Shown piece by piece: positions 4,055 through 50,861 of a DNA stretch of 64,000 nt (positions are counted from its first letter, which is position 1; the number at the start of each line of letters is the position of its first letter). Both the position numbers and the translations under genes were made by a program. The notes under the pieces are model-generated. The model was not told where the DNA came from. It worked only from the letters and a program-made list of their open reading frames with translations, and did not search any database. Location of the stretch: contig JAZKXO010000026.1 of the NCBI GenBank assembly GCA_045611685.1, positions 18,623-82,622 on the forward strand, read 5' to 3'. This DNA comes from Eubacteriales bacterium (GTDB taxonomy: Bacteria > Bacillota > Clostridia > Oscillospirales > CAG-272).

Positions 4055-4198
4055 GACTTGCTTGCCGCTTTTCTTTGATACCACAGGCACAAAGAAAAGT
4101 TAACAAAAGAAATGCCGTCTCCCTGCCGGGGGGCGCAGGTCTGCGCGTCCTGCACTGCGCAAGGGGACAAGTCCCCTTGATCCCACACTTTAAATTCA
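4055..4198. repeat. interspersed ~130-150 bp repeat, copy A (core hairpin CTTTTCTTTG-N12-CAAAGAAAAG plus GC-rich palindromes)
   Basis: The string cttttctttgataccacaggcacaaagaaaagttaacaaaagaaatgccg...caaggggacaagtccccttga aligns by eye with copies at 19761-19880 (rc), 30476-30605 and 40148-40285 (rc). Confidence 0.8.
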
Positions 4199-11287: not shown

Positions 11288-11390
11288 CAAAGGGACTTTT
11301 GAAAAAGTCCCTTTGAATCCTCAAAACTTTTAAACCTATAAAAAAATCACGTCTGTGCAAAAATTCCGCATAGACGTGATTTTGTTTTTT
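11288..11390 (+). terminator. composite 3'-end module after uvrA: palindrome + linker + GTGC-core hairpin with T-run
   Basis: CAAAGGGACTTTTGAAAAAGTCCCTTTG (11288-11315), then linker aatcctcaaaacttttaaacctata, then ATCACGTCTGTGC-loop-GCATAGACGTGAT followed by TTTTGTTTTTT (11346-11390). Confidence 0.8.
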
Positions 11391-11424
11391 GAAGTTTTTG
11401 GGCTGAGGATTTTCCGGGTTTCTA

Positions 11425-11453
11425 TTGAATCTCACTCTGTTTTGTGATATACT
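11425..11453 (+). promoter_or_regulatory. sigma-A type promoter of RNA unit 1
   Basis: TTGAAT (11425-11430), a 17-nt spacer, then TGaTATACT with the -10 at 11448-11453. Confidence 0.7.
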
Positions 11454-11457
11454 ATCC

Positions 11458-11618
11458 TTGCTACACAATCTAATATTCAACCTTATTTGTGGGAAACTAC
11501 CTTGGTAAAAGGTGTTTTCTCTCTTTGCTCATACCTATAGATAGGCAGAGCTTGTGTCGCAACAATGAGGGGAACGCTTTTTCGGTGCGTTCCTTATTGG
11601 GGCGCACTTTTTTATTTT
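11458..11618 (+). ncRNA. structured RNA unit 1 (chimeric or degenerate copy) with intrinsic terminator
   Basis: The 5' arm is identical to unit 2. The 3' arm is replaced by acctatagataggcagagc, so the distal helix cannot form. Terminator GGTGCGTTCC-TTATT-GGGGCGCAC + TTTTTTATTTT at 11584-11618. Confidence 0.6.
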
Positions 11619-11679
11619 AACCGTATATCTTTAGCAGAAGGTGATAAAATGACGAGCACGGGGATTTTCCGGTTTTCTA

Positions 11680-11708
11680 TTGAAAATTCCTTCGTTTTAT
11701 GATATACT
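11680..11708 (+). promoter_or_regulatory. sigma-A type promoter of RNA unit 2
   Basis: TTGAAA (11680-11685), a 17-nt spacer, then TGaTATACT with the -10 at 11703-11708. Confidence 0.7.
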
Positions 11709-11712
11709 ATCC

Positions 11713-11870
11713 TTGCTACACAATCTAATATTCAACCTTATTTGTGGGAAACTACCTTGGTAAAAGGTGTTTCTCTTTTCCTCATACCCACAAAAGGTTG
11801 AGATTGTGTAGCAACAATGAGGGGAACGCTTTTTCGGTGCGCTCCTTATTGGGGCGCACTTTTTTATTTT
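11713..11870 (+). ncRNA. structured RNA unit 2 (best-paired copy) with intrinsic terminator
   Basis: P1 is TTGCTACACAATCT (11713-11726) paired with AGATTGTGTAGCAA (11801-11814), 14 bp perfect. The distal helix is CAACCTTATTTGTGGG/CCCACAAAAGGTTG. The apical loop holds an ACCTT-GGTAA-AAGGT mini-hairpin. CCTCAT (11780-11785) is complementary to ATGAGG (11817-11822). Terminator at 11836-11870. Confidence 0.7.
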
Positions 11871-11931
11871 AACCGTATATCTTTAGCAGAAGGTGATAAA
11901 ATGACGAGCACGGGGATTTTCCGGTTTTCTA

Positions 11932-11960
11932 TTGAAACTCCCTTCGTTTTGTGATATACT
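11932..11960 (+). promoter_or_regulatory. sigma-A type promoter of RNA unit 3
   Basis: TTGAAA (11932-11937), a 17-nt spacer, then TGaTATACT with the -10 at 11955-11960. Confidence 0.7.
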
Positions 11961-11964
11961 ATCC

Positions 11965-12126
11965 TTGCGGCACAATTTCATATTTTTGATTCTATTTAGG
12001 GAAACTACCTTGGCAAAAGGTGCTTTCTCTCTTTACTCATCCCTAAATGGAATCGAGATTGTGTCGCAACAATGAGGGAATTCACTTTTTCGGTGCGTTC
12101 CTTATTGGGGCGCACTTTTTTATTTT
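11965..12126 (+). ncRNA. structured RNA unit 3 / leader of the 60-aa ORF, with intrinsic terminator
   Basis: P1 is TTGCGGCACAATTT/AGATTGTGTCGCAA (14 bp including 2 G-U pairs). The distal helix GATTCTATTTAGGG/CCCTAAATGGAATC has a different sequence from unit 2 but the same pairing. Terminator at 12092-12126. Confidence 0.7.
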
Positions 12127-12157
12127 AACCGTATAACTTTAACAGAAGGTGATAAAA

Positions 12158-12340
12158 ATGACCCGCCAGGAGCTTGCACACATTTCAAACATACTGCGTT
12201 TATCATGGGCTGCCATATACACATGCAGCAAAAATAAGGATTCAATCGGGGAGGAGCTCTTTGAAGCGATCACCGATCCGTTGACGGAAATTTTGGAGCA
12301 GATCGTGGAGTTGGCAAAGCAACCGATCGACGACATATAA
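12158..12340 (+). CDS. hypothetical small protein (60 aa, predicted all-helical, no TM segment)
   Basis: RBS AGAAGGTGA lies 6 nt before the ATG at 12158. Product is MTRQELAHISNILRLSWAAIYTCSKNKDSIGEELFEAITDPLTEILEQIVELAKQPIDDI. I recognise no family. Confidence 0.55.
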   Translation: MTRQELAHISNILRLSWAAIYTCSKNKDSIGEELFEAITDPLTEILEQIVELAKQPIDDI

Positions 12341-12352
12341 AGAAAACAAAAA

Positions 12353-12445
12353 ATCACGTCTGTGCGTAATTTGGTGCACAAACGTGATTTTTATTTTTGT
12401 ATAAAAGTTTTTGGGGGCTGGGGGCTTTTTTCAAAAAGCCCCCAG
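12353..12445. terminator. bidirectional composite terminator module between the small ORF (+) and PFOR (-)
   Basis: ATCACGTCTGTGCG-loop-GCACAAACGTGAT + TTTTTATTTTT (12353-12399), then linker tataaaagttttt, then palindrome CTGGGGGCTTTTT-TC-AAAAAGCCCCCAG (12418-12445). Confidence 0.8.
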
Positions 12446-19760: not shown

Positions 19761-19880
19761 GTCCACCTTTTGGGGAGGTGGCGGGATCAAGGGCAGCGCC
19801 CTTGTACCGGCGTTTCTTTTTGATAACTTTTTCTTTGCGCCTATAGTGTCAAAGAAAAAGTGGCAAGCAACAAAGGCTGT
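19761..19880. repeat. interspersed repeat, copy B (reverse orientation)
   Basis: ggcgtttctttttgataactttttctttgcgcctatagtgtcaaagaaaaagtggcaagc is the reverse complement of the core seen at 4055-4198. Confidence 0.8.
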
Positions 19881-23584: not shown

Positions 23585-24016
23585 ATGGCTATAAGACAAG
23601 TATCCGTATTTGTGGAAAACCGCAAAGGTGCTCTCGCCGATGCACTGCGCACCCTCTCCGATGCAGGTATCGGGCTCCGTGCGCTCTCGATCGCCGACAC
23701 CCGCGATTTCGGTATTCTGCGCATCATCACGGACGATAACCGCAAGGCGGCGATGGCACTCTCCGAGGCAGACTATATCTGCTCCGCGACGGAGGTCGTA
23801 GCGGCGGCGGCGGACGATAAACCCGGCGGACTTGCCGCACTTCTGACGATCCTCTCCGATGCGGGCATTGACGTGGAATACGTCTACGCCTTCGTGGCTG
23901 AAGCGAAAAAGCACGCCTGCGTCGTTCTCCGCGTGAACGATAACGAGGCTGCCGAGGCCGTTCTCAAAAAGGCAGGCATCTCCCTCATCACCGAGGAAGA
24001 TATTATGGGAATATAA
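23585..24016 (+). CDS. ACT domain-containing protein (tandem ACT)
   Basis: 143 aa with the pattern MAIRQVSVFVENRKGALADALRTLSDAGIGLRALSIADTRDFGILRII, and a second ACT-like half. This is the usual fourth gene of IOR/PaaK clusters. Confidence 0.8.
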   Translation: MAIRQVSVFVENRKGALADALRTLSDAGIGLRALSIADTRDFGILRIITDDNRKAAMALSEADYICSATEVVAAAADDKPGGLAALLTILSDAGIDVEYVYAFVAEAKKHACVVLRVNDNEAAEAVLKKAGISLITEEDIMGI

Positions 24017-24028
24017 AAGATTCAAAAA

Positions 24029-24061
24029 GCGGCTGTGCGCGTTTTGCGTACAGCCGTTTTT
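24029..24061. terminator. terminator hairpin, left copy of a 33-nt perfect direct repeat
   Basis: gcggctgtgcgcgttttgcgtacagccgttttt is identical to 24721-24753. Confidence 0.85.
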
Positions 24062-24063
24062 CT

Positions 24064-24408
24064 TTATTCCTCGGTTGGCGCGGGCACGACGATCGTTACC
24101 GGCTTGTTTTTCTTTTTTGCATAGTCAGCCGTGTATTTCGTTCCGCGAGAAACGCCGTCCCATATAACAAGAACAGAATCTGCGACATCTACCATAGTCT
24201 CATTTCGCTTCAATGGAGCACCTTTCCCAAACAAATCGTATCTTGGACGTAAAATCAGTTTGGAAATACGCCGCTCGTCGGCGAACCGTTCCGCCGCCGT
24301 GTCCACGCCACAAGCACCGCCGCTTATAATCATTTCCGTTTCAACCGGCACATACGCTGACAAATCCACTTTTTTTATACTTCGCGATCCAACTATTAAA
24401 AGTTTCAT
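24064..24408 (-). CDS. SLOG-fold small protein (DUF2493/YspA-like, DprA/LOG-type Rossmann fold), paralog 1
   Basis: 114 aa: MKLLIVGSRS...ISGGACGVDTAAERFA...VLVIWDGVSRGTKYTADYAKKKNKPV. RBS GGAGGA lies before the ATG at 24408. Confidence 0.7.
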   Translation of the reverse strand: MKLLIVGSRSIKKVDLSAYVPVETEMIISGGACGVDTAAERFADERRISKLILRPRYDLFGKGAPLKRNETMVDVADSVLVIWDGVSRGTKYTADYAKKKNKPVTIVVPAPTEE

Positions 24409-24514
24409 ACTTCCTCCGCATTTGGATATATATCTATATAAGTATATATGCAAACGAGGAAATTGTCAACCGTGTATATATTTATTAAAATATTTACACG
24501 AAGGAAGTGGTGGC

Positions 24515-24715
24515 ATGATTCGCTTGACGCTGGACAAATATTTAGACAGTCGCGGTATTACCCGATACGAACTGGCGAAACGGACAGGCATCCGTTTTCA
24601 GGTGCTCGACAACTATTACAAAAATAAAGTCGTCCGCTATGACAGCTACATTCTGGACAAAATCTGCACCGCGCTCTCTTGCGATATCGGGGAGATTTTG
24701 ACCTTCGAAAAATAA
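24515..24715 (+). CDS. XRE/Cro-type helix-turn-helix transcriptional regulator (66 aa)
   Basis: MIRLTLDKYLDSRGITRYELAKRTGIRFQVLDNYYKNKVVRYDSYILDKICTALSCDIGEILTFEK. RBS AAGGAAG upstream. It is divergent from SLOG paralog 1. Confidence 0.75.
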   Translation: MIRLTLDKYLDSRGITRYELAKRTGIRFQVLDNYYKNKVVRYDSYILDKICTALSCDIGEILTFEK

Positions 24716-24720
24716 AAACG

Positions 24721-24753
24721 GCGGCTGTGCGCGTTTTGCGTACAGCCGTTTTT
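24721..24753. terminator. terminator hairpin, right copy of the 33-nt direct repeat
   Basis: Identical to 24029-24061 and 692 bp away from it. Confidence 0.85.
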
Positions 24754-24818
24754 GTCCCTCTTGACGGAAGGGGGAAAAGGGAGTATACTTATAGTACCTT
24801 TTAGAAAAGAGATTCTCC

Positions 24819-25154
24819 ATGAAACTTTTGATTGCAGGCTCCCGCGGTATCGGTGATTATAATTTCGCCCCCTACATCCCCGACGGCACCGACACGATCA
24901 TCTCGGGCGGCGCTTTCGGCATCGACTCGGCGGCGGAACGGTTCGCGGATGCGCATGGACTTAAAAAGATCATCATTCGCCCGGAGTATCACCTGTACGG
25001 CAGTCGCGCGCCGCTTCTCCGCAACGAGACGATGGTGGATATGGCGGACGCGGTGCTCATCGTATGGGACGGCGTCTCCCGCGGAACGAAATACACGCTC
25101 GATTACGCGAAAAAACAAAACAAGCCGATCCTGCTTATCACGCTCAGCGAATAA
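24819..25154 (+). CDS. SLOG-fold small protein (DUF2493/YspA-like), paralog 2
   Basis: 111 aa: MKLLIAGSRG...ISGGAFGIDSAAERFA...VLIVWDGVSRGTKYTLDYAKKQNKPI. By eye it is roughly 55-60 percent identical to paralog 1. Confidence 0.7.
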   Translation: MKLLIAGSRGIGDYNFAPYIPDGTDTIISGGAFGIDSAAERFADAHGLKKIIIRPEYHLYGSRAPLLRNETMVDMADAVLIVWDGVSRGTKYTLDYAKKQNKPILLITLSE

Positions 25155-25164
25155 TGAAACAGAA

Positions 25165-25200
25165 AACGTCTGTGCGACGAACGCACAGACGTTATTTTTA
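25165..25200. terminator. bidirectional terminator between SLOG paralog 2 (+) and the permease (-)
   Basis: AACGTCTGTGCG-ACGAA-CGCACAGACGTT followed by ATTTTTA. It has the same CGTCTGTGCG core as the hairpins at 11346, 12353, 41701 and 42401. Confidence 0.8.
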
Positions 25201-26351
25201 TCGGATGAGTATCATAACCGCTGTGAGGATGATAAGGAACGCGAAATTGAAAAGGGAGAACGTGCGGATGTACGACACGCTCTTTTCGGGATTGTGCTTC
25301 GTGTACTCGCGGAACGTAATGAGGCTCGCGAGAGATGCGATCAGCGTGCCCGCGCCGCCGATGTTCACACCCCATAAGAGTTCTCGGTAATTATCCGTGA
25401 ACTGCGAGAGGAGAATCGCCGAGGGGACGTTGCTGATGCACTGGCAGGAGAGGACGCTGAACAGAAGCGTATCCTTTTCGAGAAGGAAGGAAAACGCCTC
25501 GCGCACCGCGTCGATCCGTGCCATATTGCCGGCGAAGATGAAGAAAAACACGAACGTGAGAAGAAGCGGATAATCGACCGCGGCGAGCGCTTTCTTATCG
25601 GTGAGGAAAAGCGCGGGCGGGATGACAAGAAGTCCGATCCAGTAGGGGATTCCCTTAAAGACGATCGCGATCGAAAGGGCGAAAAGGAAAAGATAAAACA
25701 CCGTTTTGCCGACGGGCAGCTTCGCGCGCTCACCCGTGAGCGTGAGGGGCTCGGCTTTCACGAACAAAAGGCACGTGGCGGTGATCAGAGCGACCGCCAA
25801 AGCGAACGGCAAAAGCATGATCCCCATAAACTCCACCGTTTGGATATTGAAATGGGAATAGAGATACAAGTTTTGCGGATTGCCGAACGGCGTGAGCATC
25901 CCGCCGAGATTCGCGGCGATGTTCTGCATGACGAAAACGAACGCCATGTACTTCTCCTGGCCGGTGGTGGTGAGGACGAAATACCCGAGCGGCAGAAACG
26001 TGAGAAGCGCCATATCGTTGGCGATCAGCATCGAACCTACAAACGTGATGTACACGAGCGCGAGGACGCTTACGCGCGCGTTCTTACAGCATCGGACGAC
26101 GCTTTCGGCTAAAATATAGAAAAAGCGGATATTTTTGAGGGCGCACACGACCGCGAGCACGGAAAAGAGGCACGTGAGCGTTTTGAAATCGAAATAGCCG
26201 AGATACGCTTCGTCCACCGGCACGATGAGCGTTGTTACGAGCGCCGCGGCAAGCGCGATCAGCATAACGGCGTTCGTTTTCACAAAACGCACGACGGATG
26301 CGGGCAGCACCGGCAAATGATGCACGGGCTTCAAAGAATGAGAAACGGCCA
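25198..26351 (-). CDS. anion permease, ArsB/NhaD (citrate-transporter-like) superfamily
   Basis: About 384 aa and polytopic (10 or more hydrophobic segments). A GTG start at 26351 sits 7 nt after AAAGGAGA; the ORF-track start at 26439 is less likely. The family call rests on general sequence character only. Confidence 0.6.
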
Positions 26352-26526
26352 CGGCGGTATCTCCTTTCGATACAAATACAAAAATCACAGTCGAACAAAG
26401 TATATCACAAATTCTCTTTGAAATCCATTGGCAAAGCAAATGAAATATCCAAAGGCAACAAAGTTGTCCGCTGTGATTTTTAACGAAAAAGGAGTTGCTG
26501 CATTATAATTGCAGCAACTCCAAGCT

Positions 26527-29075: not shown

Positions 29076-29340
29076 ACAAAAAGAGAGCCGCCGCACTCCG
29101 TGCAGCAGCTCTGTTTTTCATATAAATACCCACCGTGCCGTGTGAACGGGAAGTTAGAAACCCTGCATTTGCAAGGTTGGTGCCCTCTCCCATCGTTTGT
29201 GCTCCCAACGTCCGCGGTATCGGTCAGATGAGCGATACGCGGGAGGTCTGCATCCCCTCGGGGAAGTCCGGGCTCCACTGGTCTATTGTGGGTTCAATTA
29301 CCCGCCCATCACAAACATAGCAGGCATACGCGCGCGTCTT
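29076..29340 (-). ncRNA. candidate structured RNA (unassigned), or a long structured 3' UTR of the DUF1292 gene, ending in an intrinsic terminator
   Basis: About 260 nt with no credible ORF. Minus-strand helices include GTTTGTG/CACAAAC, CCTCCCGCGTATCG-loop-CGATACCGCGG...GGAG, and CCTTGC-AAAT-GCAGGG. The terminator is AGAGCTGCTGCAC-GGA-GTGCGGCGGCTCT + CTTTTTGT (29112-29076). A second hairpin with T-run lies at 29042-29019. Confidence 0.4.
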
Positions 29341-30475: not shown

Positions 30476-30605
30476 GCCGCTCTCCACTTTTTCTTTGACA
30501 CCAAAGGCACAAAGAAAAAGTTATCAAAAAGAAATGCCGCATCTCAAGGGCGCCGCCCTTGAAACCCGCAAGGGGACGAGTCCCCTTGACCCCGAAGCGG
30601 GGGAT
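30476..30605. repeat. interspersed repeat, copy C
   Basis: ccactttttctttgacaccaaaggcacaaagaaaaagttatcaaaaagaaatgccg...cgcaaggggacgagtccccttgacccc is in the same orientation as copy A. Confidence 0.8.
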
Positions 30606-40147: not shown

Positions 40148-40285
40148 GGTCCCGGGGGGGCGTGCCCCTTGGCGCAGTGCAGGGCGCGAAGCCCTGCGCC
40201 CCCCGGCAGGGGATCGGCGTTTCTTTTGTGAACTTTTCTTTGCGCCTGTGGTGTCAAAGAAAAGTGGCAAACAACTTCGCCTTTC
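40148..40285. repeat. interspersed repeat, copy D (reverse orientation)
   Basis: ggcgtttcttttgtgaacttttctttgcgcctgtggtgtcaaagaaaagtggcaaac, preceded by the GC hairpin gcagggcgcgaagccctgc. This is the reverse complement of copy A, including the gcgcagtgcagg segment. Confidence 0.8.
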
Positions 40286-41632: not shown

Positions 41633-41745
41633 CGGGGGAAACTTTTTACAAAAAAGCTTCCCCCGTACCCCTTTCAAAAAACCTTTATACTGAAAAACAG
41701 AATCACGTCTGTGCGCGGTTTTTGCACAGGCGTGATTTTTTATCG
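41633..41745 (+). terminator. composite 3' module after the kinase gene; its hairpin is the left copy of a 45-nt perfect direct repeat
   Basis: Palindrome GGGGGAAACTTTTTACAAAAAAGCTTCCCCC (41633-41663), linker gtacccctttcaaaaaacctttatactgaaaaacag, then aatcacgtctgtgcgcggtttttgcacaggcgtgattttttatcg (41701-41745). Confidence 0.85.
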
Positions 41746-42045
41746 GAAGCAATTTCCGCAGAATGAATATCCCTCATTGATCAGCGCATCTGCCGCGCCT
41801 TCGTAATACCGGCGGTTTTCGTCGTGAATCAGAGCGGCAGTACCGCAGGTTATTTTGTGGATTTTCTTCGAACGGATGTTGAGAATGTATTCGTCTTGTA
41901 CGCTCTCCGTGTATTCGCGCTCGGGTTCGCTTCGGATAAGTATAATTTCTTCCTTGGCACAGGAGTTAAATAAAAGGAAAAAGAAGACAACAACCCATAT
42001 ACACCCTTTTCTCCACCGGGATGCGTGAGCTTTTTTTATTAGCAT
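41740..42045 (-). CDS. small membrane/lipoprotein with C-terminal Cys-rich metal-binding-like motif
   Basis: 101 aa with an N-terminal hydrophobic segment ending in NSC. The C-terminal KIHKITCGTAALIHDENRRYYEGAADALINEGYSFCGNCFR resembles the Ada-type Zn-binding tails of small Firmicute proteins. Confidence 0.55.
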   Translation of the reverse strand: MLIKKAHASRWRKGCIWVVVFFFLLFNSCAKEEIILIRSEPEREYTESVQDEYILNIRSKKIHKITCGTAALIHDENRRYYEGAADALINEGYSFCGNCFR

Positions 42046-42079
42046 TTCCCCTCGCCTCGCAAATAGTTTTTATTGCATT

Positions 42080-42121
42080 ATAACACCGTGCGGTGTTATT
42101 TGTCAATGCCGAACGGTGTTT
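42080..42121. promoter_or_regulatory. candidate operator sites in the divergent promoter region of the XRE gene
   Basis: Perfect palindrome ATAACACCG-TG-CGGTGTTAT (42080-42099), plus a third half-site CGAACGGTGTTT (42110-42121). Confidence 0.5.
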
Positions 42122-42164
42122 TTACGTATAATAACTTTATATAATAGATCTGTGAGGTTATTAT

Positions 42165-42368
42165 ATGTACGTCTACAAACGTATACGGGATCTACGGGAA
42201 GATCACGACAAAACGCAGAAAGAAATTTCTTCGTTTTTGAATATGCATCTGACCGTCTATCAGCGCTATGAGCGCGGAGAAAGAGAACTTCCTTTATGGG
42301 CGGCGATTAAACTGGCAGATTATTACCACGTCTCGCTCGATTATCTGGTCGGGCGAACGGATAAATAG
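42165..42368 (+). CDS. XRE-family helix-turn-helix transcriptional regulator (67 aa)
   Basis: MYVYKRIRDLREDHDKTQKEISSFLNMHLTVYQRYERGERELPLWAAIKLADYYHVSLDYLVGRTDK, a canonical Cro/C1 HTH with the DYLvGR tail. Confidence 0.85.
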   Translation: MYVYKRIRDLREDHDKTQKEISSFLNMHLTVYQRYERGERELPLWAAIKLADYYHVSLDYLVGRTDK

Positions 42369-42400
42369 AAGAACGCCCCGCAAAAACTCTATATAATACA

Positions 42401-42445
42401 AATCACGTCTGTGCGCGGTTTTTGCACAGGCGTGATTTTTTATCG
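42401..42445. terminator. terminator hairpin, right copy of the 45-nt perfect direct repeat (also ends the endolysin gene)
   Basis: Identical to 41701-41745 and exactly 700 bp away from it. Confidence 0.85.
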
Positions 42446-42446
42446 T

Positions 42447-42965
42447 TCATATTTCGAAATATCCTCGGTTCAGCCGCGCGTGTGAAAAATTCGCGCACCC
42501 GGCCGTCCCGTACTGCCAAACCGTCGGCGAAAACGTAAGCGCACGCGCTTCGGTCACGCCCCACGAAAGGAGCCACACGGGATACGGCGAGGGCGTCTTT
42601 ACCGCCGCGGGCGGGGCGGCGAGCATCGGGGCAAACCCGGCTGCCGAAACGGCACGGAGAAACTTCTCCGCTTCGGGCATCTGTCTATTCTCCTCCGCGC
42701 GGCAGGCCGCCCAGAGGCGAACGCGCTCGCGAAGCGGTTTAATAAGCGAGAGAAACAGCAGAGCCTCCCTTCGCCCGTCCGCGAAAAGCTCGTGATACAC
42801 GCCGACGGCGATCCCCGCCCGCTCGGCGGCTATGATATTCTCACTAAAACGCTGATCGGGGACAAGGCCCGCCGATACGCGGATGAGCGCAAACGCGATG
42901 CCGGCGGCTTCGGCGCCCGCCCAATCAAAGCAGCCGTCACGGGCACAAACGTCGATCCCGTTCAC
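42447..42965 (-). CDS. GH25-type muramidase (endolysin), catalytic domain only
   Basis: MNGIDVCARDGCFDWAGAEAAGIAFALIRVS...GVYHE...VWQYGT follows the GH25 pattern GIDVSxxQGxIDW...IR...YH...WQY. Confidence 0.7.
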   Translation of the reverse strand: MNGIDVCARDGCFDWAGAEAAGIAFALIRVSAGLVPDQRFSENIIAAERAGIAVGVYHELFADGRREALLFLSLIKPLRERVRLWAACRAEENRQMPEAEKFLRAVSAAGFAPMLAAPPAAVKTPSPYPVWLLSWGVTEARALTFSPTVWQYGTAGCANFSHARLNRGYFEI

Positions 42966-43219
42966 GGAAAATCCTCCCTTTCGAGATCGTGCAGGCGGAT
43001 CTCATGCGCCTGCAGCTGCCGCCCGTGCGCCTCGATTTCCGCGTACATCTCCTCGTGCTCGCGATCGCGCTCTTTACGATCCCGCGAGAGTGCGTCACCC
43101 ATGTTTTTGACCGTTACGTCAAGCCTTGTGAGAACGGAGGACAACTTGAACCCGAGCGTTCCGACGGTAATGAGAAAGCCGCCGAGCGTAATAAGCCCCG
43201 CTACGATCGCCCAGGTCAT
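42962..43219 (-). CDS. putative holin / lysis-associated membrane protein
   Basis: 85 aa with one N-terminal TM segment (WAIVAGLITLGGFLITVGTLGF) and a charged coiled-coil tail. It overlaps the endolysin start by 4 nt. Confidence 0.45.
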   Translation of the reverse strand: MTWAIVAGLITLGGFLITVGTLGFKLSSVLTRLDVTVKNMGDALSRDRKERDREHEEMYAEIEAHGRQLQAHEIRLHDLEREDFP

Positions 43220-44460
43220 GAAATCTCCTCAAGAGAGCCCCGAGGCACGCCGTAGATAATGACGGCACCCGAGCCACCCGAACCGGAGTACGTATCCGTC
43301 TCGACAGCGCGGCCGCCGCCCGCACCGATTCCGCCCGCCACGCCGTCCGTGCCGGGGATAGTACCGCTTTTCTTCGTGCCGCTGATACCGCCTTCACCGA
43401 AGTAGGAATCGGCGCCTTTTTCCGTCGTGCCGACCTCTGCCGTAAAAATACCGACGACGGCAGGCGTTGCTTCTTGGCTTACACTTTCAAGGCCGCCCTC
43501 GCCGCCGGGGACAGAGAAGCCGTCAAAGGATGTACTGCCACCCCTCATTCCCGCAAAAGAGGAGTAGGTCGTTTTCTTCCGCTTTTCACCGCCTACACCG
43601 ACCGTAACGGCTACAGGCTTCATCGGCAAGGGGAGATGCGCAAGCACTGCCATACCGCCCGCCGAGCCGCCCGTACCTCCCGCAGAAGCGGCACCCGATC
43701 CGCCCGCGCCGATGAGAACGACCGTATAAAGCCCGTCCGCCGTGGGATATGCCGCGGGATCGAACGTACCGCTTTCGGTAATGCGGCAAAGCTCTTTCAT
43801 GCCGGGGAAAGCGTCAAGGAAAAAGCGGTACTGACCGTCGCCGCAGAGAAGCGTATCCGCGCCTGCATCGGTGCGGAACACGTTTGCCGCTTTCACGAGC
43901 TGTGCCGCATCCGCGCCGTCAAAATAATCACAAAGCGCGGTCTCGTAGCGGGCGAGCATCTCCTCGACCTCCAGCCGATTGAGGATGTAGTCCGCGCGCG
44001 GACGCAGATCGGTGAGATACGTCCCCTCGATAAACGTCTCGCCCGCCGGGATGAACACGGCGGCAAGCGGGATCTCTCTCACCGTATCGGTATAGGTGCA
44101 AATGGGTGCCGTCGGCATTTCGGCCGCCGTACCCGTGAGAATGGCGCAGCGCATCTCACGCGCCGTAAGATCCAGTCTCAAAACGACGCGGTCGATTCTG
44201 GGGAGCGCGGCATCCGCCTCGGCAAGGGAAAGCGAAAGCGCCGCCGTGTTTCGGTACGTGTATCCGTCGATCACCGCCGTGCCCGCGGCTACGTCGACCG
44301 CCATACCGCCGAGAGACGACGGCGTAACGGTAAGAGAATCGGCGCTCGTTACACCGTTTGAAACGTACGCCGCCCGCTCGGCGGCAAAATCCTCCGCTGT
44401 GTACACGCGATCCGGCACGCCGTCGATCGCCACAGCATTGAACGGAAATGATTTCTCCAT
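43216..44460 (-). CDS. phage tail fibre / receptor-binding-like protein with C-terminal glycine-rich domain
   Basis: 414 aa with an N-terminal FNAVAIDGVPDRVYTAEDFA... and C-terminal GAGGSGAASAGGTGGSAGG...GGIGAGGG repeats. Confidence 0.5.
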   Translation of the reverse strand: MEKSFPFNAVAIDGVPDRVYTAEDFAAERAAYVSNGVTSADSLTVTPSSLGGMAVDVAAGTAVIDGYTYRNTAALSLSLAEADAALPRIDRVVLRLDLTAREMRCAILTGTAAEMPTAPICTYTDTVREIPLAAVFIPAGETFIEGTYLTDLRPRADYILNRLEVEEMLARYETALCDYFDGADAAQLVKAANVFRTDAGADTLLCGDGQYRFFLDAFPGMKELCRITESGTFDPAAYPTADGLYTVVLIGAGGSGAASAGGTGGSAGGMAVLAHLPLPMKPVAVTVGVGGEKRKKTTYSSFAGMRGGSTSFDGFSVPGGEGGLESVSQEATPAVVGIFTAEVGTTEKGADSYFGEGGISGTKKSGTIPGTDGVAGGIGAGGGRAVETDTYSGSGGSGAVIIYGVPRGSLEEIS

Positions 44461-44496
44461 ATATAAATCTCCTTAAAAATGATAATGTGCCCGCCG

Positions 44497-45480
44497 TCAG
44501 CGGGTGAGTCGAACGGATACCGTATGACGGATGCCCGTCTCGTCCGCACAAACGGTCTTTTCCTCGCAAAAAGCCGTCCCGACGATGCCGAAAAGATCGT
44601 CCTCAATGAGACATTCTTCCCCCACGTGCAAGGATGCCGCCGCGGCCGCTGACACGTCGATGCTGACCGAACGGATGCCGCGGTGCTCGGCGAGCACGCG
44701 TTTGCCCTCCGCTCTGAGGGTCAAAAGATACTCTTCGTCCGACGGGAAAAGCGAGGGTGCGATCTTATACGCATTATGATATATCTCCGAAAGCGGAGCT
44801 GCCGCGTCGTCGATGCCGTCGTCGAACAGCCCCACCGCCGAAACGGTAACGGTGCGCCCGTCGTAACCCTTCACGATTACCGAGTTTTTGTAATTTTCGC
44901 CCTCCGTTACGCGCACGCCGCCCGTAAGATCACCGCCGCCGCGCGACAGACGGAGCTTTGCCGCCGTGCGGCTTTGCGCGGCGAACAGAAAACCGCCGTC
45001 CGTCACGGCAAGGCGCATACCGAGCCCCGATGCACGACAGACGGATTTCATCGCGGAAAGAAGCGATCCGCCGCCGATCACCATATCCACCGCCTCGGGA
45101 AAGCCGTACTCGACCGTCGAGAGCGGCGCGGGGAGAACGGATGCCCCCCACTCGCTCGAAAGACCGAGGAGAACCGTCTCCGCATCGCCCGAAACGCGGC
45201 GGTACTCCGGCATCTGCCGCCCTTCAAAATAGGAAAGGATCCCGCGCCCCTTGACCGTGGCAATGCCCTCTGCGGCATCCTCCCTTATTTCACCGACGGT
45301 AAAGGCTCCGATCCCGGGGATCACAAGAACGTCCCCCGCCATAAAGCGGCGGGCATCGGAGAGGGGCACGGCAAGCGTACACGCCCCCGGCGCCGAAAAC
45401 GACTCCGAGGCGGTAACCGTAAGTGCCGCATCAGAGATGCTTTTGAGAGTAAGCGAAGAATTAAAAATCCGAATATCCAT
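44497..45480 (-). CDS. phage tail structural protein (Siphovirus Gp37-like)
   Basis: It starts MDIRIFNSSLTLKSISD... at ATG 45480 (RBS GAGGAGGGG). Its position is between the Dit-like and fibre genes. The family call is from memory of the Gp37-like N-terminal pattern. Confidence 0.45.
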   Translation of the reverse strand: MDIRIFNSSLTLKSISDAALTVTASESFSAPGACTLAVPLSDARRFMAGDVLVIPGIGAFTVGEIREDAAEGIATVKGRGILSYFEGRQMPEYRRVSGDAETVLLGLSSEWGASVLPAPLSTVEYGFPEAVDMVIGGGSLLSAMKSVCRASGLGMRLAVTDGGFLFAAQSRTAAKLRLSRGGGDLTGGVRVTEGENYKNSVIVKGYDGRTVTVSAVGLFDDGIDDAAAPLSEIYHNAYKIAPSLFPSDEEYLLTLRAEGKRVLAEHRGIRSVSIDVSAAAAASLHVGEECLIEDDLFGIVGTAFCEEKTVCADETGIRHTVSVRLTR

Positions 45481-45490
45481 AAGCCCCTCC

Positions 45491-46312
45491 TCAGTGATAA
45501 AGCGGCGTGATGGCAACCGATACCGCCGCCGTGCCGTCGCCCTCGCTCTGCCAGGTAAGCTTGTTCTCCCCCGGCTCAAGGGCGAACATCACGCTGTCCA
45601 CGGTGAGCCCACCGATCGCGGACGCGTCCCCGACCGTTACCGTTTTTTTCGAGGGGCGCGTGTCGATCACCATAGAGGCACCGATCGGCAAGGGATAAAC
45701 GACGGAGATCTTCTCCCCCGACTCTGCCGTCACGGTGAAAGAGGTGAGATCGCTCCACTCTGCCAGGACAGTGAGAACGAACCCGCACGGCACGTCGCCG
45801 GGGTTTTCTACCGTAATCTCGCCCTCGCCCGTGCTCAGGGCAAATACCGTGCCCTCGTCCATACGAAAGGGGAAGACGAGTTTCCCCGTCCAGCCGCGCT
45901 CGGACGCTGTCTCCACCGGCGCTGAAAAATACGCGGCGGTGGCACTTTTTGCCTCGGCATAAACGCTAAAGAACGCCGCCTCGTCTCCGTTGAGCGGTGC
46001 TTCGTGCGCGAAAACGGGCGCCTGTTTCGCCGTCAGATCAATGCTCCGTTCGCCCACCCGAAGAGTGAACCCGCCTCTGTTCGTTACGATACGGCGAAGG
46101 CGGCGAGAGAGAAGCTCCTTCTCGGCCGCGCGCGAAGTCGGCGTTCCCCCGACGGGCAGAATATAGCCCGAAAACGTAACCGAACGCCCCGCCGTGCGAT
46201 CACCCGCAAGCTTTGCCGCCCCCGCATCGAAATCGTGCAGAACGTATCCGCCGCGACCGAAAATGACTGTGTCCCGTCCGTTTGTAATCGAAATCGTATC
46301 GCATACCGTCAT
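45491..46312 (-). CDS. phage tail family protein (distal tail protein-like)
   Basis: 273 aa starting MTVCDTISITNGRDTVIFG.... The C-terminal ...FALEPGENKLTW... is typical of siphovirus tail-component proteins. Its start overlaps the upstream stop (ATGA at 46309-46312). Confidence 0.5.
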   Translation of the reverse strand: MTVCDTISITNGRDTVIFGRGGYVLHDFDAGAAKLAGDRTAGRSVTFSGYILPVGGTPTSRAAEKELLSRRLRRIVTNRGGFTLRVGERSIDLTAKQAPVFAHEAPLNGDEAAFFSVYAEAKSATAAYFSAPVETASERGWTGKLVFPFRMDEGTVFALSTGEGEITVENPGDVPCGFVLTVLAEWSDLTSFTVTAESGEKISVVYPLPIGASMVIDTRPSKKTVTVGDASAIGGLTVDSVMFALEPGENKLTWQSEGDGTAAVSVAITPLYH

Positions 46313-46818
46313 CCGAACACCACCTTCCCCATAACGCCCGCGTCGTCCGATTCCGCGATAAGCGAAAACTTCCACGCGGAATCTCTTTCGGGAGAAAGCG
46401 AAAGCTCTGCCCCCGACGAAGCCGACGCGATCAGGGAAAAGACGACCTCGCCGCCGCCTGCCGACTCGGGAATTTCCGCAACGAGCACGATGCGCACCCG
46501 CGCATGCCGCCCCGCGTCCGTCTTGCCGCCGAGATATACGACGGATCCGTCCGTGGGCGAGCCGGTAGCCGCCGCCAGAACGCGCGGATACAGGCGGACG
46601 AGCCTGCCCTCGATTCTGACTCTTGCGCCGTAGCGCACCGAGCGGACGACCTCGCCGTCCCAGCCCTTGATCTCGTGCACCTTCGCACTGTACTGAAGCT
46701 TCACGCCGCCCTTCGTCGCCCCGGCGTAAAAGCGGAGCGAACGCGCCGCAGCCTCACTCACCTCAGCGGGCGCTATATACAATCGCCCCGCACCGAGGGC
46801 GTAATATTTCTCTTCCAT
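46309..46818 (-). CDS. putative major tail (tube) protein
   Basis: 169 aa starting MEEKYYALGAGRLYIAPAEV..., with RBS GGAAGGAGA. The call rests on size and position after the head-tail joining genes. Confidence 0.4.
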   Translation of the reverse strand: MEEKYYALGAGRLYIAPAEVSEAAARSLRFYAGATKGGVKLQYSAKVHEIKGWDGEVVRSVRYGARVRIEGRLVRLYPRVLAAATGSPTDGSVVYLGGKTDAGRHARVRIVLVAEIPESAGGGEVVFSLIASASSGAELSLSPERDSAWKFSLIAESDDAGVMGKVVFG

Positions 46819-46874
46819 AGATCTCCTTCCTACACATACAACTGTCAAACAAAGCGCGGAGACCGAACCCGAGC

Positions 46875-46964
46875 GTTTCCGGTATTCCGCCCTAGGCGGA
46901 ACGCTGTCTCTCTTGACAGCGCGGAAACCTCGCCGAGTAATCCGTGCCAAAGCACGGATTACTC
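46875..46964 (-). promoter_or_regulatory. structured intergenic element: three-way junction plus 13-bp hairpin between the head-tail joining genes and the tail gene
   Basis: On the + strand, GTTTCCG (46875-46881) pairs with CGGAAAC (46922-46928). This closes the hairpins TTCCGCC-CTA-GGCGGAA and CGCTGTC-TCTCTT-GACAGCG. It is followed by GAGTAATCCGTGC-CAAA-GCACGGATTACTC (46935-46964). Confidence 0.5.
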
Positions 46965-47321
46965 GCCGCACCTTCCTTGTATCTCAAAACCTGCCTGCAG
47001 ATAATAGAGCCCACATCCGCGAACGTAGCCGCCGCGGCCGCCCTCCTTCGTCCCGCAGATGACAAGCGAATCAGCACCGATCCCGACGACACCCGTGTCG
47101 CCGTCTGCGAGAAGCGCCCGCTGCAGTGCCGAAATCTCCGACGCCGCCGCATCGGGCGAGCGATGGAACACGCGCACTTCAAATCTTGCCGTTCTGAGCG
47201 CGCCGTCGCCCCGTCCGGGGTAATACCGATACACCGCCGAGGGGGAAAGACTTTTCCCCGGCGCGGGCGAAAGCGGCACGGTAAGTGCCGACGATGCGGC
47301 TTTCACTACGCGATCATGCAT
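46959..47321 (-). CDS. phage head-tail joining / tail-completion-like protein
   Basis: 120 aa. The call is based on position only. Confidence 0.35.
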   Translation of the reverse strand: MHDRVVKAASSALTVPLSPAPGKSLSPSAVYRYYPGRGDGALRTARFEVRVFHRSPDAAASEISALQRALLADGDTGVVGIGADSLVICGTKEGGRGGYVRGCGLYYLQAGFEIQGRCGE

Positions 47322-47619
47322 CGGGGCACCCCTCCTCTACGTAGATTCTCTCACATTTCACACGCCAAATCCTGCCAAGATCGACCGGCACGAGCATCCG
47401 ATACACGGCGTCCCCGCGCGTGATCGTCATCCCGCGGCGAAAGCCGCCCACGGGGGTATATCTCGCGGGGATAAGAGCGAGCACAGTCGCCGACGCGCGG
47501 TCGAGATCGTCCTCCATGATTTCCTCCGCCGTGCGGTGTGAGATGACCGCCATGACCGTGCCCACACTCTCGCCGTCCTTGTTCTTTAAGATGAACGTGC
47601 GCAAAAGACGACGCATCAT
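47314..47619 (-). CDS. phage head closure / head-tail adaptor-like protein
   Basis: 101 aa. The call rests on position and size; its start overlaps the upstream stop. Confidence 0.4.
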   Translation of the reverse strand: MMRRLLRTFILKNKDGESVGTVMAVISHRTAEEIMEDDLDRASATVLALIPARYTPVGGFRRGMTITRGDAVYRMLVPVDLGRIWRVKCERIYVEEGCPDA

Positions 47620-47936
47620 CGAGATCCCCCCCGTCTGCCGCCCGGATGGCGGATGGCGTACAGCTGACGCATCACCGAGTCGCTGTATCCGTCCAGGTAC
47701 GCCTCGGTCGCGCCCGAGACGGCGCGGGATTTTACCCCCGCACCGTCCAGTTTCCCATAGTCCTCCGCCACCATCTGTGAAAGCAGAAAATCCGGCACGC
47801 GCTCCTCGGCTCTCAATCGGCAGAAGGCGCGAACGTATGCCTCGGCATCCGCGAGAAGCGTGTGGATGAGGGCGTCATCCGTCTCATCCGTCCCGTCAAG
47901 CCCCAGCCGCATACGCATTTCCTTTACTGTAATCAT
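47616..47936 (-). CDS. phage gp6-like head-tail connector protein
   Basis: MITVKEMRMRLGLDGTDETDDALIHTLLADAEAYVRAFC matches the usual vKxhLRvd...D.li..li.aA pattern. Confidence 0.6.
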   Translation of the reverse strand: MITVKEMRMRLGLDGTDETDDALIHTLLADAEAYVRAFCRLRAEERVPDFLLSQMVAEDYGKLDGAGVKSRAVSGATEAYLDGYSDSVMRQLYAIRHPGGRRGGSR

Positions 47937-47966
47937 CGTTTTCCGTCCTTTCCCGTTTCAAAGATA

Positions 47967-47978
47967 GAACAAATGTTC
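47967..47978. promoter_or_regulatory. GAAC-N4-GTTC palindrome (Cheo/LexA-box-like), copy 1
   Basis: GAACAAATGTTC within tAGAACAAATGTTCTttttgg, between the capsid stop (47987) and the connector start (47936). Confidence 0.55.
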
Positions 47979-47986
47979 TTTTTGGA

Positions 47987-49015
47987 TCAGAGAGAGACGA
48001 CGGCGCTTTTCAGAACGAGGCCGTTCTCGTCGGCTTCTGCAACGGCGATGCGGTTTGCGTTCGCCTTCTTAATCGGGGACGTGCCGTCCCATGCCTCAAA
48101 GGAGGAAACGTCATCGCCGAGAAGCGGCGCATCCGCGTCGTAGAGGACGTAGAGGGCGTTCTCGTCGGCGCTCTTGCCGGAAACGGTAAGAGTGATCTCG
48201 CCGTCTGCGGTCTCAGCGGTAACGGTCAAGGCCGGTGCCGCCTCGCCGAGGATGACGGAGGAGGTGTCGTCCACCAGAGCGATCACGCCGTGGCGCTCGT
48301 AGACGATTGTGTTCTCCTTCTTCTCGATGTCGCGGCTCTGCTCAAGGCCTGCCTCGCGCTTGACGAAGAATTTGACAGCAGCCTTTTCGGTGATGATGAC
48401 CTTGCCCGCCGGCACGAGCTTGGAGAAGAGCACCGGAATACCGCACAGCGTACCGAACTGACCACTGTACACGATCTCGCCCTGATGCGCGGAGATGAAA
48501 TCGGGATCACGGCGGATCGCGGTGCGGCCGTCCGCACCCATAAGGATAAAGAGCCCGTCCTCGACCTCGCGGCCGATGTTGCCGAGTGCCTCGACGATAT
48601 CCGTGTAGGTGAGCGTCTCACCTGCGATCGCGTGGCGGTTCTTGATCTGCTTCAGCTGATCGAAATACTCGACGCGAAGCTGATTTGCCATCACGTCAGC
48701 GGCACCGGCAAGCGCCACGTCGATGAGGGCGGGATCCTGCATCGCTTCCACGTCGTTGTAGCGGAAGGTCTGCTGATAACGCTTTACGGTATAACTCTCC
48801 GGTGTGAAGGAGATAGAGCCTGCGGCGGAGTTTGCCTTACCGCCCTCCAGCGTCTCCACGGTACCGTTGTAGGTATAGCGGTTGATGATTTTGGTGAGAC
48901 CCGCACCCTCCGAGAGAGAGTCGTCCACCGTCATAAGGGAACGAACCTCGAGCTTGGAGTTGAGGATCTCGGTCAGCTTTGCTTCAAGTACGCTGTTTTC
49001 ATAAACTGTGTTCAT
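47987..49015 (-). CDS. phage major capsid protein
   Basis: 342 aa located after the scaffold gene. The N-terminal region MNTVYENSVLEAKLTEILNSKLEVRSLMTVD...YTYNGTVETL is capsid-like. The C-terminal ~90 aa look like an extra Ig-like or decoration domain. Confidence 0.7.
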   Translation of the reverse strand: MNTVYENSVLEAKLTEILNSKLEVRSLMTVDDSLSEGAGLTKIINRYTYNGTVETLEGGKANSAAGSISFTPESYTVKRYQQTFRYNDVEAMQDPALIDVALAGAADVMANQLRVEYFDQLKQIKNRHAIAGETLTYTDIVEALGNIGREVEDGLFILMGADGRTAIRRDPDFISAHQGEIVYSGQFGTLCGIPVLFSKLVPAGKVIITEKAAVKFFVKREAGLEQSRDIEKKENTIVYERHGVIALVDDTSSVILGEAAPALTVTAETADGEITLTVSGKSADENALYVLYDADAPLLGDDVSSFEAWDGTSPIKKANANRIAVAEADENGLVLKSAVVSL

Positions 49016-49076
49016 AGAATACTACCTTTCATAAAAGAAATATTGTTGTTTCGGAGTTTTGGGGCATTCCCCATAC

Positions 49077-49589
49077 TCACATCATCTCTGCGAGCTTTGC
49101 GATCGGCGTCTCACGGATGATCTTCCCCGTAAGTGCCGAAGCCTCACCCATACCGGGGCGGATCCCCTCCGTTTTTTCGCGGATTGCACGGGCTGCCGCG
49201 GCATCGATGGCGCCCGCCAGCATCTCCACACGGGCAGAAAGTATCTCGTCGGTCAGATCGGTGTCATAGGGGGTAAGAAGGAGCGACACCATCTCCTCCC
49301 CGAGAGAGTGCGCGCGGAGCATTTTCTCACAGCGGATCTCCGTCTCGCGGCGCGCCGCACGCTCGTCCGCCCGAGCGAGCGCTTCCCTGAGCGATTCGAT
49401 CTCCGCCGTCATCTCGACCGCCGCGGCTGCCGTCTCCCGTTCCCTTTCGGCTTCCCACGAAAGACGCGCCTCACTGAGTCGCGCCGCAAGATCGGCGGCT
49501 GTAAACACCTCCGCCGGTGCATCTTCGACTGCGGGCACGTCGATCGGATCTGCCGTCTCGCTCTCTTTTTCAAAAATCTCGTCCGTCAT
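49077..49589 (-). CDS. phage scaffolding protein
   Basis: 170 aa, acidic and predicted helical/coiled-coil, located between the portal and capsid genes. Confidence 0.55.
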   Translation of the reverse strand: MTDEIFEKESETADPIDVPAVEDAPAEVFTAADLAARLSEARLSWEAERERETAAAAVEMTAEIESLREALARADERAARRETEIRCEKMLRAHSLGEEMVSLLLTPYDTDLTDEILSARVEMLAGAIDAAAARAIREKTEGIRPGMGEASALTGKIIRETPIAKLAEMM

Positions 49590-50833: not shown

Positions 50834-50861
50834 AAGATTCCTTTCTGTAATACCTTTTGGA

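Follow-up and report, generated by a model that had tools for sequence, protein, structure and literature searches.

What kind of element places two small SLOG-type genes around a single XRE-type regulator gene, next to two copies of the same terminator-like hairpin? The question is raised by a 64-kb stretch of the genome of an Eubacteriales bacterium, a gut species of the Clostridia (contig JAZKXO010000026.1; 57% GC), which is called the window below; all coordinates are window positions. An earlier note on this DNA had described the islet as a SLOG–XRE–SLOG triad. The comparisons reported here make it probable that an itinerant cassette of SLOG1 and the XRE gene lies beside an older, resident SLOG2, and that the triad is not a three-gene system. 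What is found is a well-delimited two-gene SLOG–XRE module of a known fold class, present in this species as a recombining, strain-variable allele.

The islet lies between the ACT-domain gene that ends the IOR-PaaK-ACT operon (23585–24016, plus strand) and a CitMHS-family permease gene (25198–26352, minus strand); gene annotation confirmed both neighbors as first described. The 33-nt sequence GCGGCTGTGCGCGTTTTGCGTACAGCCGTTTTT occurred in exact copies at 24029–24061 and 24721–24753 only, with a spacing of 692 bp. No third match with up to three mismatches was present in the window, and shuffled sequences gave an expectation of zero. By repeat search and RNA folding, these copies belong to two hairpins: copy 1 (24024–24061) is bidirectional and terminator-like, with an A-tract before and a T-tract after it, and copy 2 (24717–24753) is the putative terminator of the XRE gene. 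Between them, in the layout already noticed, lie SLOG1 (24064–24408, minus strand, 114 aa), an AT-rich divergent control region of 106 bp with 32% GC (24409–24514) and the XRE gene (24515–24715, plus strand, 66 aa). Directly after hairpin 2, a promoter scan located a sigma-70-like promoter (TTGACG-17-TATACT; 24761–24789, plus strand) facing SLOG2 (24819–25154, plus strand, 111 aa). SLOG2 had been taken for an oppositely oriented paralog with an identity, judged by eye, of 55–60%; the orientation held, and the identity to SLOG1 was 63%. The related hairpin announced behind SLOG2, AACGTCTGTGCG...CGCACAGACGTT, was placed by terminator scan and folding at 25165–25193, where it would terminate transcription in both directions, with SLOG2 on one side and the permease gene on the other.

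The divergent SLOG–XRE unit

SLOG1 and SLOG2 scored 35.1 and 32.8 bits against the Pfam model DNA_processg_A (gathering score 29.6) and 27.8 and 28.5 bits against cpYpsA (gathering score 26.2). Thus, of the SLOG/DUF2493 identity proposed in the earlier note, the SLOG fold held for both proteins; in PF10686 (YAcAr, formerly DUF2493), SLOG2 passed with 30.0 bits (gathering score 28.2) and SLOG1 failed with 23.7 bits. Both matched PHROG_289 over their full length (E = 4e-19 for SLOG1 and 2e-17 for SLOG2). The AF2 model (pLDDT 94.3, pTM 0.87), with strands and helices alternating, and the Foldseek matches gave a Rossmannoid three-layer alpha/beta fold with a parallel sheet, as is characteristic of the SLOG superfamily. 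The best solved matches were ShosA (8zva) and the Rossmann domain of DprA (TMq 0.72), and ShosA, DprA and MoCo-carrier SLOG proteins were all matched with TMq values of 0.62–0.72. A glycine-rich loop after strand 2 (GGxxGxD-type) and a conserved C-terminal polar motif were present, and G30, G31, A32, G34, D36, R68, N69, D84, G85, S87 and G89 were invariant in 22 family members.

Alignment with the Rossmann domain of H. pylori DprA matched the SGGAxGVD and RN...SxGT motifs. These motifs and the DNA_processg_A match are shared with DprA/Smf, but the central ~45 residues of the DprA domain and both accessory domains (SAM and C-terminal) are missing from the window proteins. DprA orthology was ruled out by the scores against the DprA equivalog TIGR00732 (26.8 and 21.7 bits, versus a cut-off of 191 bits), the single domain and the length of 111–114 aa. 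Judged by its model, SLOG1 is a trimmed DprA/ShosA-like Rossmann domain. ShosA and PsyrA, from the ShosTA and PsyrTA defence systems, have the same SLOG/DprA Rossmannoid fold but comprise ~300–400 aa, and the window proteins lack their SAM domain and part of the sheet. Pfam matches to the YAcAr and cpYpsA families were borderline to passing. These families include small stand-alone forms in phages and mobile DNA, for which sensing or processing of nucleotide- or NAD-derived ligands has been predicted, and YAcAr-type domains are predicted to handle NAD- or ADP-ribose-derived ligands (PMC7824862). Unlike them, the window SLOGs are without effector-domain fusions and are paired with a divergent XRE gene. 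Neither SLOG1, searched as the exact protein, nor a window protein of 852 aa had a record in the contig index.

The XRE protein is a Cro/C1-type helix-turn-helix (HTH) protein that matches HTH_26 in Pfam (E = 5e-17) and consists of the DNA-binding domain only. In the spacer between its gene and SLOG1, the promoter P_SLOG1 was found on the minus strand (TTGACA at 24469–24464, 17 nt, TATACT at 24446–24441) and P_XRE on the plus strand (TTGTCA at 24463–24468, 17 nt, TAAAAT at 24486–24491). The two −35 boxes stand back to back, the motif TTGACAA being nearly self-complementary, and each is 17 nt away from its −10 box. The spacer was aligned with its counterparts in other genomes, i.e., 43 intergenic regions from 42 loci with an HTH_26 regulator and the window, representing about 40 species. 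The regions aligned over their full length and yielded the consensus XRE<-CAT..CCTCC..ATATATATTTTAATnAATATATACCTnnTTGACAATTTCnnTATTTnGGTATATACTTATATAGGTATATA..GGAGG..ATG->SLOG. In this alignment, TTGACAA is flanked at fixed spacing by ATATATAC / GGTATATAC / GGTATATA repeats, and (pseudo)palindromes of the TATATAC type, three in all, lie across both −10 boxes, that of XRE and that of SLOG, and across the SLOG transcription start. With the window left out of the profile, nhmmer recovered the window spacer with E = 4.6e-19.

Because the control region is conserved, and by analogy with Cro/CI-type switches, we infer that the XRE protein represses its own gene and switches off SLOG1 as well. It would most likely bind the repeated TATATAC-type operators over the back-to-back promoters and thereby keep both genes low. 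Conservation of the two genes together with their control region in about 40 species points to selection on the unit itself.

Stand-alone SLOG proteins of ~110 aa form a family of more than 1,500 clusters, nearly all from uncultured gut and rumen Clostridia, with hundreds of phage relatives, yet the family is without a name. Gene neighborhoods were surveyed at 80 species-representative loci, 78 of which were informative. At about 64 of these 78, the SLOG gene was accompanied by a small divergent XRE-type regulator. A homolog of the HTH_26 XRE protein (62–77% identical) was encoded about 105 bp upstream on the opposite strand at 42 of the 80 loci; the divergent position was taken by a different HTH_3 protein of 78 aa at 18 loci, by a third XRE type at 4 and by another small open reading frame (ORF) at 5. 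About 10% of the loci had a SLOG gene without any regulator. Beyond the pair, unrelated housekeeping genes were found in every species surveyed, and ACT or PaaK adjoined SLOG at none of the 80 loci from other species. The window fits this pattern with a SLOG of ~110 aa, an HTH gene ~105 bp upstream and the conserved control region.

The triad itself, for which the same survey had been recommended, did not recur as one system; the divergent SLOG–XRE pair recurred instead, and a second SLOG was present at one of the 80 loci (L022), in another layout. By these neighborhoods, the recurrent unit is the divergent SLOG–XRE pair, and SLOG1 with its XRE gene would represent a two-gene cassette that is itinerant and widespread in gut Clostridia. 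In the window, the triad is a new cassette beside an old paralog, brought together by local coincidence or by a shared insertion hot spot. The pairing with a divergent XRE gene across a conserved multi-operator control region is not described in the literature searched. Thus, the genetic unit of this SLOG family is now defined as the gene plus a divergent XRE gene with a conserved operator layout.

L022 (485–2153) carries two [XRE− SLOG+] units with different regulators. Its two SLOG genes are near-identical, with 305 nt identical from the ribosome binding site onward, but they differ in the divergent XRE gene, the promoter region and the terminator to which each is joined. As this mosaic shows, effector and regulator modules recombine.

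Strain variability and age of the block

Alleles were compared on same-species contigs that encode the exact flanking ACT protein. A filled, window-like allele (L002, L003, L007 and others) and an empty allele (L001, L004, L005 and L008–L010) were observed. The block was absent from 7 of the 10 listed contigs with the identical ACT protein and from all 13 contigs carrying the commonest SLOG2 variant. This comparison with strains lacking the insertion had been proposed in the earlier note. Alignment of filled (window, L002, L003) and empty (L001, L004) alleles, together with composition, delimited the block to 24017–24812, i.e., 796 bp in the window and 793–796 bp in other strains. It stands in place of a single C of the empty strains (TAA-C-TTCTCCATG), in which the ACT stop codon is followed by CTTCTCC (7 bp) and then by the SLOG2 start codon. 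The block comprises both hairpin copies, SLOG1, the XRE gene and the sigma-70-like promoter toward SLOG2, and this promoter is missing from the empty strains. The hairpins had been regarded as the bounds of the block; since both copies sit inside the variable segment, they do not delimit the insertion.

The impression of an AT-rich, insertion-like accessory block was borne out not only by its presence or absence between strains but also by a GC content of 45%, as compared to 57% for the window. The GC content at third codon positions was 0.46 for SLOG1, 0.61 for the XRE gene and 0.72 for SLOG2, with values of 0.74–0.78 for neighboring genes. SLOG2 is read as long-resident because of this host-like composition and its presence without SLOG1 or the XRE gene in at least 13 same-species contigs. 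It would be an older, ameliorated paralog that forms part of the host locus, where it simply closes the IOR-PaaK-ACT operon in many strains.

Divergence between lineages amounted to 0.5–1.4% in the block and 3.5–4.5% in the flanks. To the left of the indel, the empty L001 and the filled L002 differed at 10 positions in 6 kb (0.17%), with no difference in the final 780 nt. To the right, 15 differences fell within the ~425 nt adjoining the indel and were sparse beyond; within these ~425 nt lie SLOG2 and the hairpin as well as the permease gene's 3' end. As a sequence pattern, this is a homologous-recombination tract that moved the block, or its absence, between lineages. When the window was compared with other strains, no divergence peak stood out beside the indel over the ~4% background; the peak appears only in the close pair L001/L002. 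Composition and divergence mark the block as foreign DNA of recent date that strains exchange through recombination in its flanks. The cassette would thus be recently acquired foreign DNA that forms a presence/absence allele of ~0.8 kb and is spread by homologous recombination in the flanking genes. The "minimal mobile elements" of Neisseria are likewise small cassettes between conserved genes that are gained and lost by homologous recombination after DNA uptake. Flank recombination is common to both cases; duplicated terminators, in contrast, are not part of that concept.

Within this account, the duplicated hairpins would act as bidirectional intrinsic terminators of a host-specific family, insulating the cassette from its convergent neighbors. 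Hairpin 2 and the promoter behind it would restore the SLOG2 expression that hairpin 1 would cut off from the operon.

Two further variants were seen at SLOG2. In the filled-allele contig L179 (2060–2400), a 1-nt deletion frameshifts SLOG2, which is either a pseudogene beside SLOG1 or the result of an assembly error. In L006 (1123–1915), downstream of SLOG2, an insert of ~790 bp resembling a miniature inverted-repeat transposable element splits the loop of the SLOG2 terminator hairpin. This insert has terminal inverted repeats of ~20 bp (TGTTGTTCTTAACGGAGAA / TTCTCCGATAAGAACACAA). It contains a promoter and a zinc-ribbon ORF of 61 aa, along with ~250 nt that are GC-rich and look structured; an Rfam search of the insert gave no match.

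Phage relatives and candidate roles

Relatives of the SLOG proteins were found in viral contigs (213 in total), and the neighborhoods of the best 80 were analyzed. At 15 of these 80 loci, the next gene encodes a phosphoribosyltransferase (PRTase)-domain protein matching ShosT/PsyrT. Two examples are L123 (532–1473) and L126 (689–1315), where, as at 13 more viral loci, the SLOG relative is followed by a ParB-like/PRTase-domain protein recognized by the ShosT and PsyrT models. This order suggests miniature ShosTA/PsyrTA-like pairs or counter-defence mimics. Amidoligase, ParB-methyltransferase and ribonucleotide reductase genes were other viral neighbors, and the HTH_26 XRE partner was present at none of the best 80 viral loci. 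The family is thereby linked to DprA-like antitoxin partners of PRTase toxins, and this link and the SLOG–XRE unit together offer a concrete and cheap experimental entry point. ShosA is a DprA-like antitoxin which attaches to single-stranded DNA (ssDNA) and which promotes recombination between very short repeats, and in ShosA/PsyrA fold systems the SLOG partner is the antitoxin (PMC11961720). By analogy, SLOG1 may tentatively be seen as a non-toxic, nucleic-acid- or nucleotide-binding accessory protein, ShosA/PsyrA-like, in conflicts between phages or mobile genetic elements and their hosts.

Several observations weigh against parts of this account. For the family, the ideas of a nucleotide or nucleic-acid ligand and of ssDNA binding derive from the resemblance of predicted folds. 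The ShosA/PsyrA models matched the SLOG proteins over ~40 residues (E 2e-7 to 5e-3) rather than over their full length. ShosTA and PsyrTA have a PRTase toxin partner, in place of which the bacterial cassettes have the divergent XRE gene; no conserved PRTase gene was found near SLOG at the 80 bacterial loci, and none adjoins the window locus, where the neighbors are ACT, XRE and CitMHS. The putative operators were assigned on conservation only, and the 66-aa XRE protein is without a sensor domain. As to the order of the alleles, the empty site has no hairpin at all, and no intermediate allele with a single hairpin occurred among the same-species contigs with the exact ACT protein or the SLOG2 variant. 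The adjacency of two oppositely oriented, 63% identical paralogs is unlikely for random insertion, and a hot spot explains it loosely. It was also considered that the SLOG2 promoter might be a relic of the control region, which would make the empty allele a deletion. This candidate was rejected, as the promoter matched the family control-region profile with E = 7 (nhmmer), which is not significant and like generic promoters elsewhere; a match seen by eye in the −35 box, the spacing and TATACTTATA was not upheld.

The adjacency of the paralogs would be accounted for if the three genes formed a single conflict system, with two sensors or effectors around one regulator; the XRE gene also points at SLOG2, and the promoter within the block drives it. 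We give this explanation very little credence, in view of the different layout of the one locus with two SLOGs among 80, the occurrence of SLOG2 alone in most strains of the species, the different compositional ages of SLOG1 and SLOG2, and an upstream region of SLOG2 in which no operator-bearing control region was detectable. It is quite improbable that SLOG1 and XRE are a toxin–antitoxin or abortive-infection pair, consisting of a toxic nucleotide-processing SLOG enzyme and an antitoxin or repressor. Such a pair would agree with a small mobile two-gene module that has an XRE partner and phage relatives, and some SLOG/LOG-like folds are nucleotide hydrolases (the DNPH1 and Cap17-like models gave weak matches). 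However, SLOG1 and XRE are divergent genes with separate promoters and not the co-directional, bicistronic operon of a type II system, the XRE protein is a bare HTH, the SLOG partner in the ShosA/PsyrA systems is the antitoxin, as cited above, and PADLOC matched no system as a whole. A toxin role is further disfavored because many strains carry SLOG2 with no regulator at all; this, and the ~10% of loci without a regulator, argues that the protein is not intrinsically toxic. A prophage leftover, i.e., an immunity-region remnant or moron without an autonomous role, is improbable. The full-length PHROG_289 matches of both SLOGs, the 213 viral relatives, the promoter–gene–terminator architecture and the foreign composition would suit such an origin, but the XRE gene is missing from the best 80 phage loci, the bacterial cassettes are flanked by housekeeping genes and no phage genes, and the unit is conserved with its control region in about 40 species.

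Duplicated hairpins, sister islets and other window features

Hairpin copy 1 folds with −26.6 kcal/mol on the plus strand and −19.8 kcal/mol on the minus strand (z −6.5 and −4.2), and copy 2 with −24.2 and −18.9 kcal/mol. Over both copies and strands, values ranged from −19 to −27 kcal/mol (z −3.5 to −6.5), with A- and T-tracts, and these predicted folds make bidirectional termination plausible. Seven hairpins of one family, with the pattern ...CGTCTGTGC...GCACAGACG..., start in the window at 11340, 12348, 24024, 24717, 25161, 41697 and 42398. All seven stand at borders of low-GC segments, while neighboring genes keep their own, different terminators. A sister islet (41701–42445) had been noticed for its like layout, and the likeness held: it has a 45-nt exact repeat (41701–41745 and 42401–42445) at a spacing of 700 bp, a minus-strand gene for a 101-aa lipoprotein-like protein (41740–42045), an AT-rich spacer and a plus-strand gene for a 67-aa XRE protein (42165–42368). 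A third low-GC segment (11340–12392) has family hairpins at both ends (11340–11385 and 12348–12392). The pairs were identical in the SLOG islet (33/33 nt) and in the sister islet (45/45 nt). Stem-loops thus flank all three low-GC segments, and a promoter follows directly after hairpin 2; what is repeated, however, is little more than the stem-loop.

In other strains, the sister islet varied: L011 has two cassettes and three identical hairpins, and L013 has a deletion and mixed hairpin types. The variable array follows PfkB (L011, 6117–7560; L013, 6117–7320) and encodes 93-aa and 101-aa lipoprotein-like paralogs that share an identical 3' end of ~200 nt plus hairpin. Each paralog is paired with a different regulator, either a 57-aa RHH-like or a 67-aa RstR-like XRE protein, and in L013 the deletion has joined a hairpin with the 5' portion of the 101-aa gene. 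Relatives with a PfkB at least 90% identical had no hairpin, cassette or phage block after PfkB, and hence no single-hairpin state.

For SLOG cassettes of other species, the similarity between a cassette's own two ends had a median of 16.5, as compared to 16 across loci, and at least 35 of the 42 HTH_26-type cassettes did not exceed the cross-locus controls. In L019, L024, L035, L059 and L086, near-identical terminators of species-specific sequence flank the SLOG cassette, with weaker cases in L095 and L048; end similarity in the loci with duplicated terminators was 31–69, with a 99th percentile of 24 in the cross-locus controls. Several of these repeats abut stop codons, some pairs differ by compensatory stem changes, and repeat lengths ranged from 23 to 57 nt. 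In L083 and L068, moreover, a copied SLOG terminator brackets segments next to the cassette; a duplication of 29 nt is present in L054. Recurrence, foreign cargo and host-type hairpins together suggest that the duplication arises locally, linked to insertion or persistence of the cassette. Survivorship is a sufficient partial explanation, since convergent genes can tolerate DNA inserted between them only when a terminator is retained at each of the two junctions.

Several origins were considered for the hairpins and rejected. They are not inherited parts of the cassette, as their sequences are wholly different between species and at least 35 of 42 cassettes showed no end similarity. A prophage att site was dismissed because no copy lies at the far end of the phage-like block at 42.4–52.3 kb, which has structural and lysis genes only. 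The varying repeat lengths, ends that abut stop codons without terminal repeats, and the hairpin-less empty site spoke against a fixed-length transposase duplication. Integron attC sites measure 55–141 nt and have R''/L''/L'/R' boxes, versus stems of ~26–33 nt with T-tracts here. IS200/IS605-type (PATE-like) elements have subterminal hairpins at either end on one strand and go with a Y1 transposase in the genome; the hairpins here are in direct orientation, 12 and 59 nt from the block ends, and have no recognizable conserved cleavage motif. Scans for the hairpin family gave 2 matches in viral_contigs and 67 in metagenome_contigs, which is about the chance level; none was window-related, and the species is absent from both collections.

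The same hairpins could, as an alternative to flank recombination, be the sites at which cassettes without a recombinase, or mobilized in trans, recombine or insert. Cassettes would loop out as mini-circles and re-insert at hairpins, or insertion would duplicate the hairpin, and arrays would be built in a manner resembling PeSLs (promoter/stem-loop cassettes in T4-type phages) or integrons without an integrase. The position of all seven family hairpins within 64 kb at accessory borders, the identical pairs around each cassette, the two cassettes with three hairpins in L011, the duplicated terminators and adjoining-segment duplications in other species, foreign cargo between host-family hairpins, and a promoter directly behind hairpin 2, as in PeSLs (PMC2839356), all speak for this possibility. 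It is nevertheless rather unlikely. Because the empty allele is without a hairpin, the simple hairpin-to-hairpin model does not fit: neither excision nor insertion at a hairpin would give that site as a simple product. The same-species contigs contained no single-hairpin allele, most HTH_26-type cassettes have no end similarity above background, and repeats of 23–57 nt are unlike an enzyme-defined target duplication. No integrase is among the genes annotated at 17–29 kb and 36–64 kb, and no recombinase was seen in the annotated parts of the window. Homologous recombination in the flanks, moreover, fully explains the movement from strain to strain.

The closest described analog of the hairpin-flanked cassettes is PeSL-mediated shuffling in T4-type phages (PMC2839356, PMC4122927). 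There, too, accessory ORFs lie between repeated terminator stem-loops (with a promoter after one of them here), close relatives differ in presence or absence, and there is no sign of a dedicated recombinase. PeSLs, in contrast, belong to phage genomes with phage recombination machinery, and their mini-circles were demonstrated experimentally, whereas the present case concerns a bacterial chromosome and repeats that are mainly the stem-loop. Integron cassettes are similar in size (~0.7 kb), in their imperfect palindromic bounds and in forming arrays such as that of L011, but the hairpins here are terminators, the cassettes have their own promoters and regulators, and neither an integrase nor attI was seen. 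It appears doubtful that terminator stem-loops in these Clostridia generally serve as landing or exchange sites for small self-regulated cassettes, with hairpin duplication upon insertion or mini-circles giving rise to arrays. Integron arrays or PeSL shuffling would then have a chromosomal counterpart that needs no integrase, possibly aided by the DprA-like protein encoded in some cassettes. The duplication signature, which recurs in several species with their own hairpin sequences, is a moderately interesting hint at how genes may be inserted. If it reflects a mechanism and not survivorship, it would show in what way convergent genes can receive accessory genes between them while transcription stays undisturbed, and duplicated terminators would extend to cells a mode of shuffling so far documented only in T4-type phages.

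Some features lie near the other low-GC segments. Three tandem units of ~252 nt are found at 11390–12160 (40% GC). In each of them, ~110 nt separate a promoter-like site from a terminator hairpin (CGGTGCG...GGGCGCAC plus T-run), after which come a ribosome binding site and the start ATGACGAGCACGGGG. A 60-aa ORF (12158–12340) without a Pfam match continues from the last unit, and an Rfam search of the tandem units at 11.4–12.2 kb found no match. Beside the sister islet, a phage-like cluster of ~10 kb (42447–52220, minus strand) has packaging, head, tail and lysis genes only, i.e., TerL, SPP1-type portal, scaffold, capsid, Dit, Gp37-like, glycine-rich fibre, holin-like and GH25 lysin genes. It is without integrase, repressor and replication genes, is followed by Dus and pyruvate kinase, and is conserved in the same-species contigs L011–L014. 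This leaves two readings, a gene-transfer-agent-like cluster or a structural remnant.

Elsewhere in the window, the palindrome TTTCTTTG-N12-CAAAGAAA occurs in four copies (4070–4097, 19830–19857, 30490–30517 and 40235–40262), with none expected. Each copy stands upstream of a plus-strand gene or operon, one of them ~60 nt before IOR-PaaK-ACT and one before PfkB, and the copies look like a shared operator or regulon motif. A 6S RNA was identified at 29123–29329 on the minus strand (Rfam RF00013, 50 bits, E = 5e-7). Finally, a 26-nt exact direct repeat (57831–57856 and 57995–58020; spacing 164 bp) was found upstream of an ABC-transporter solute-binding gene.

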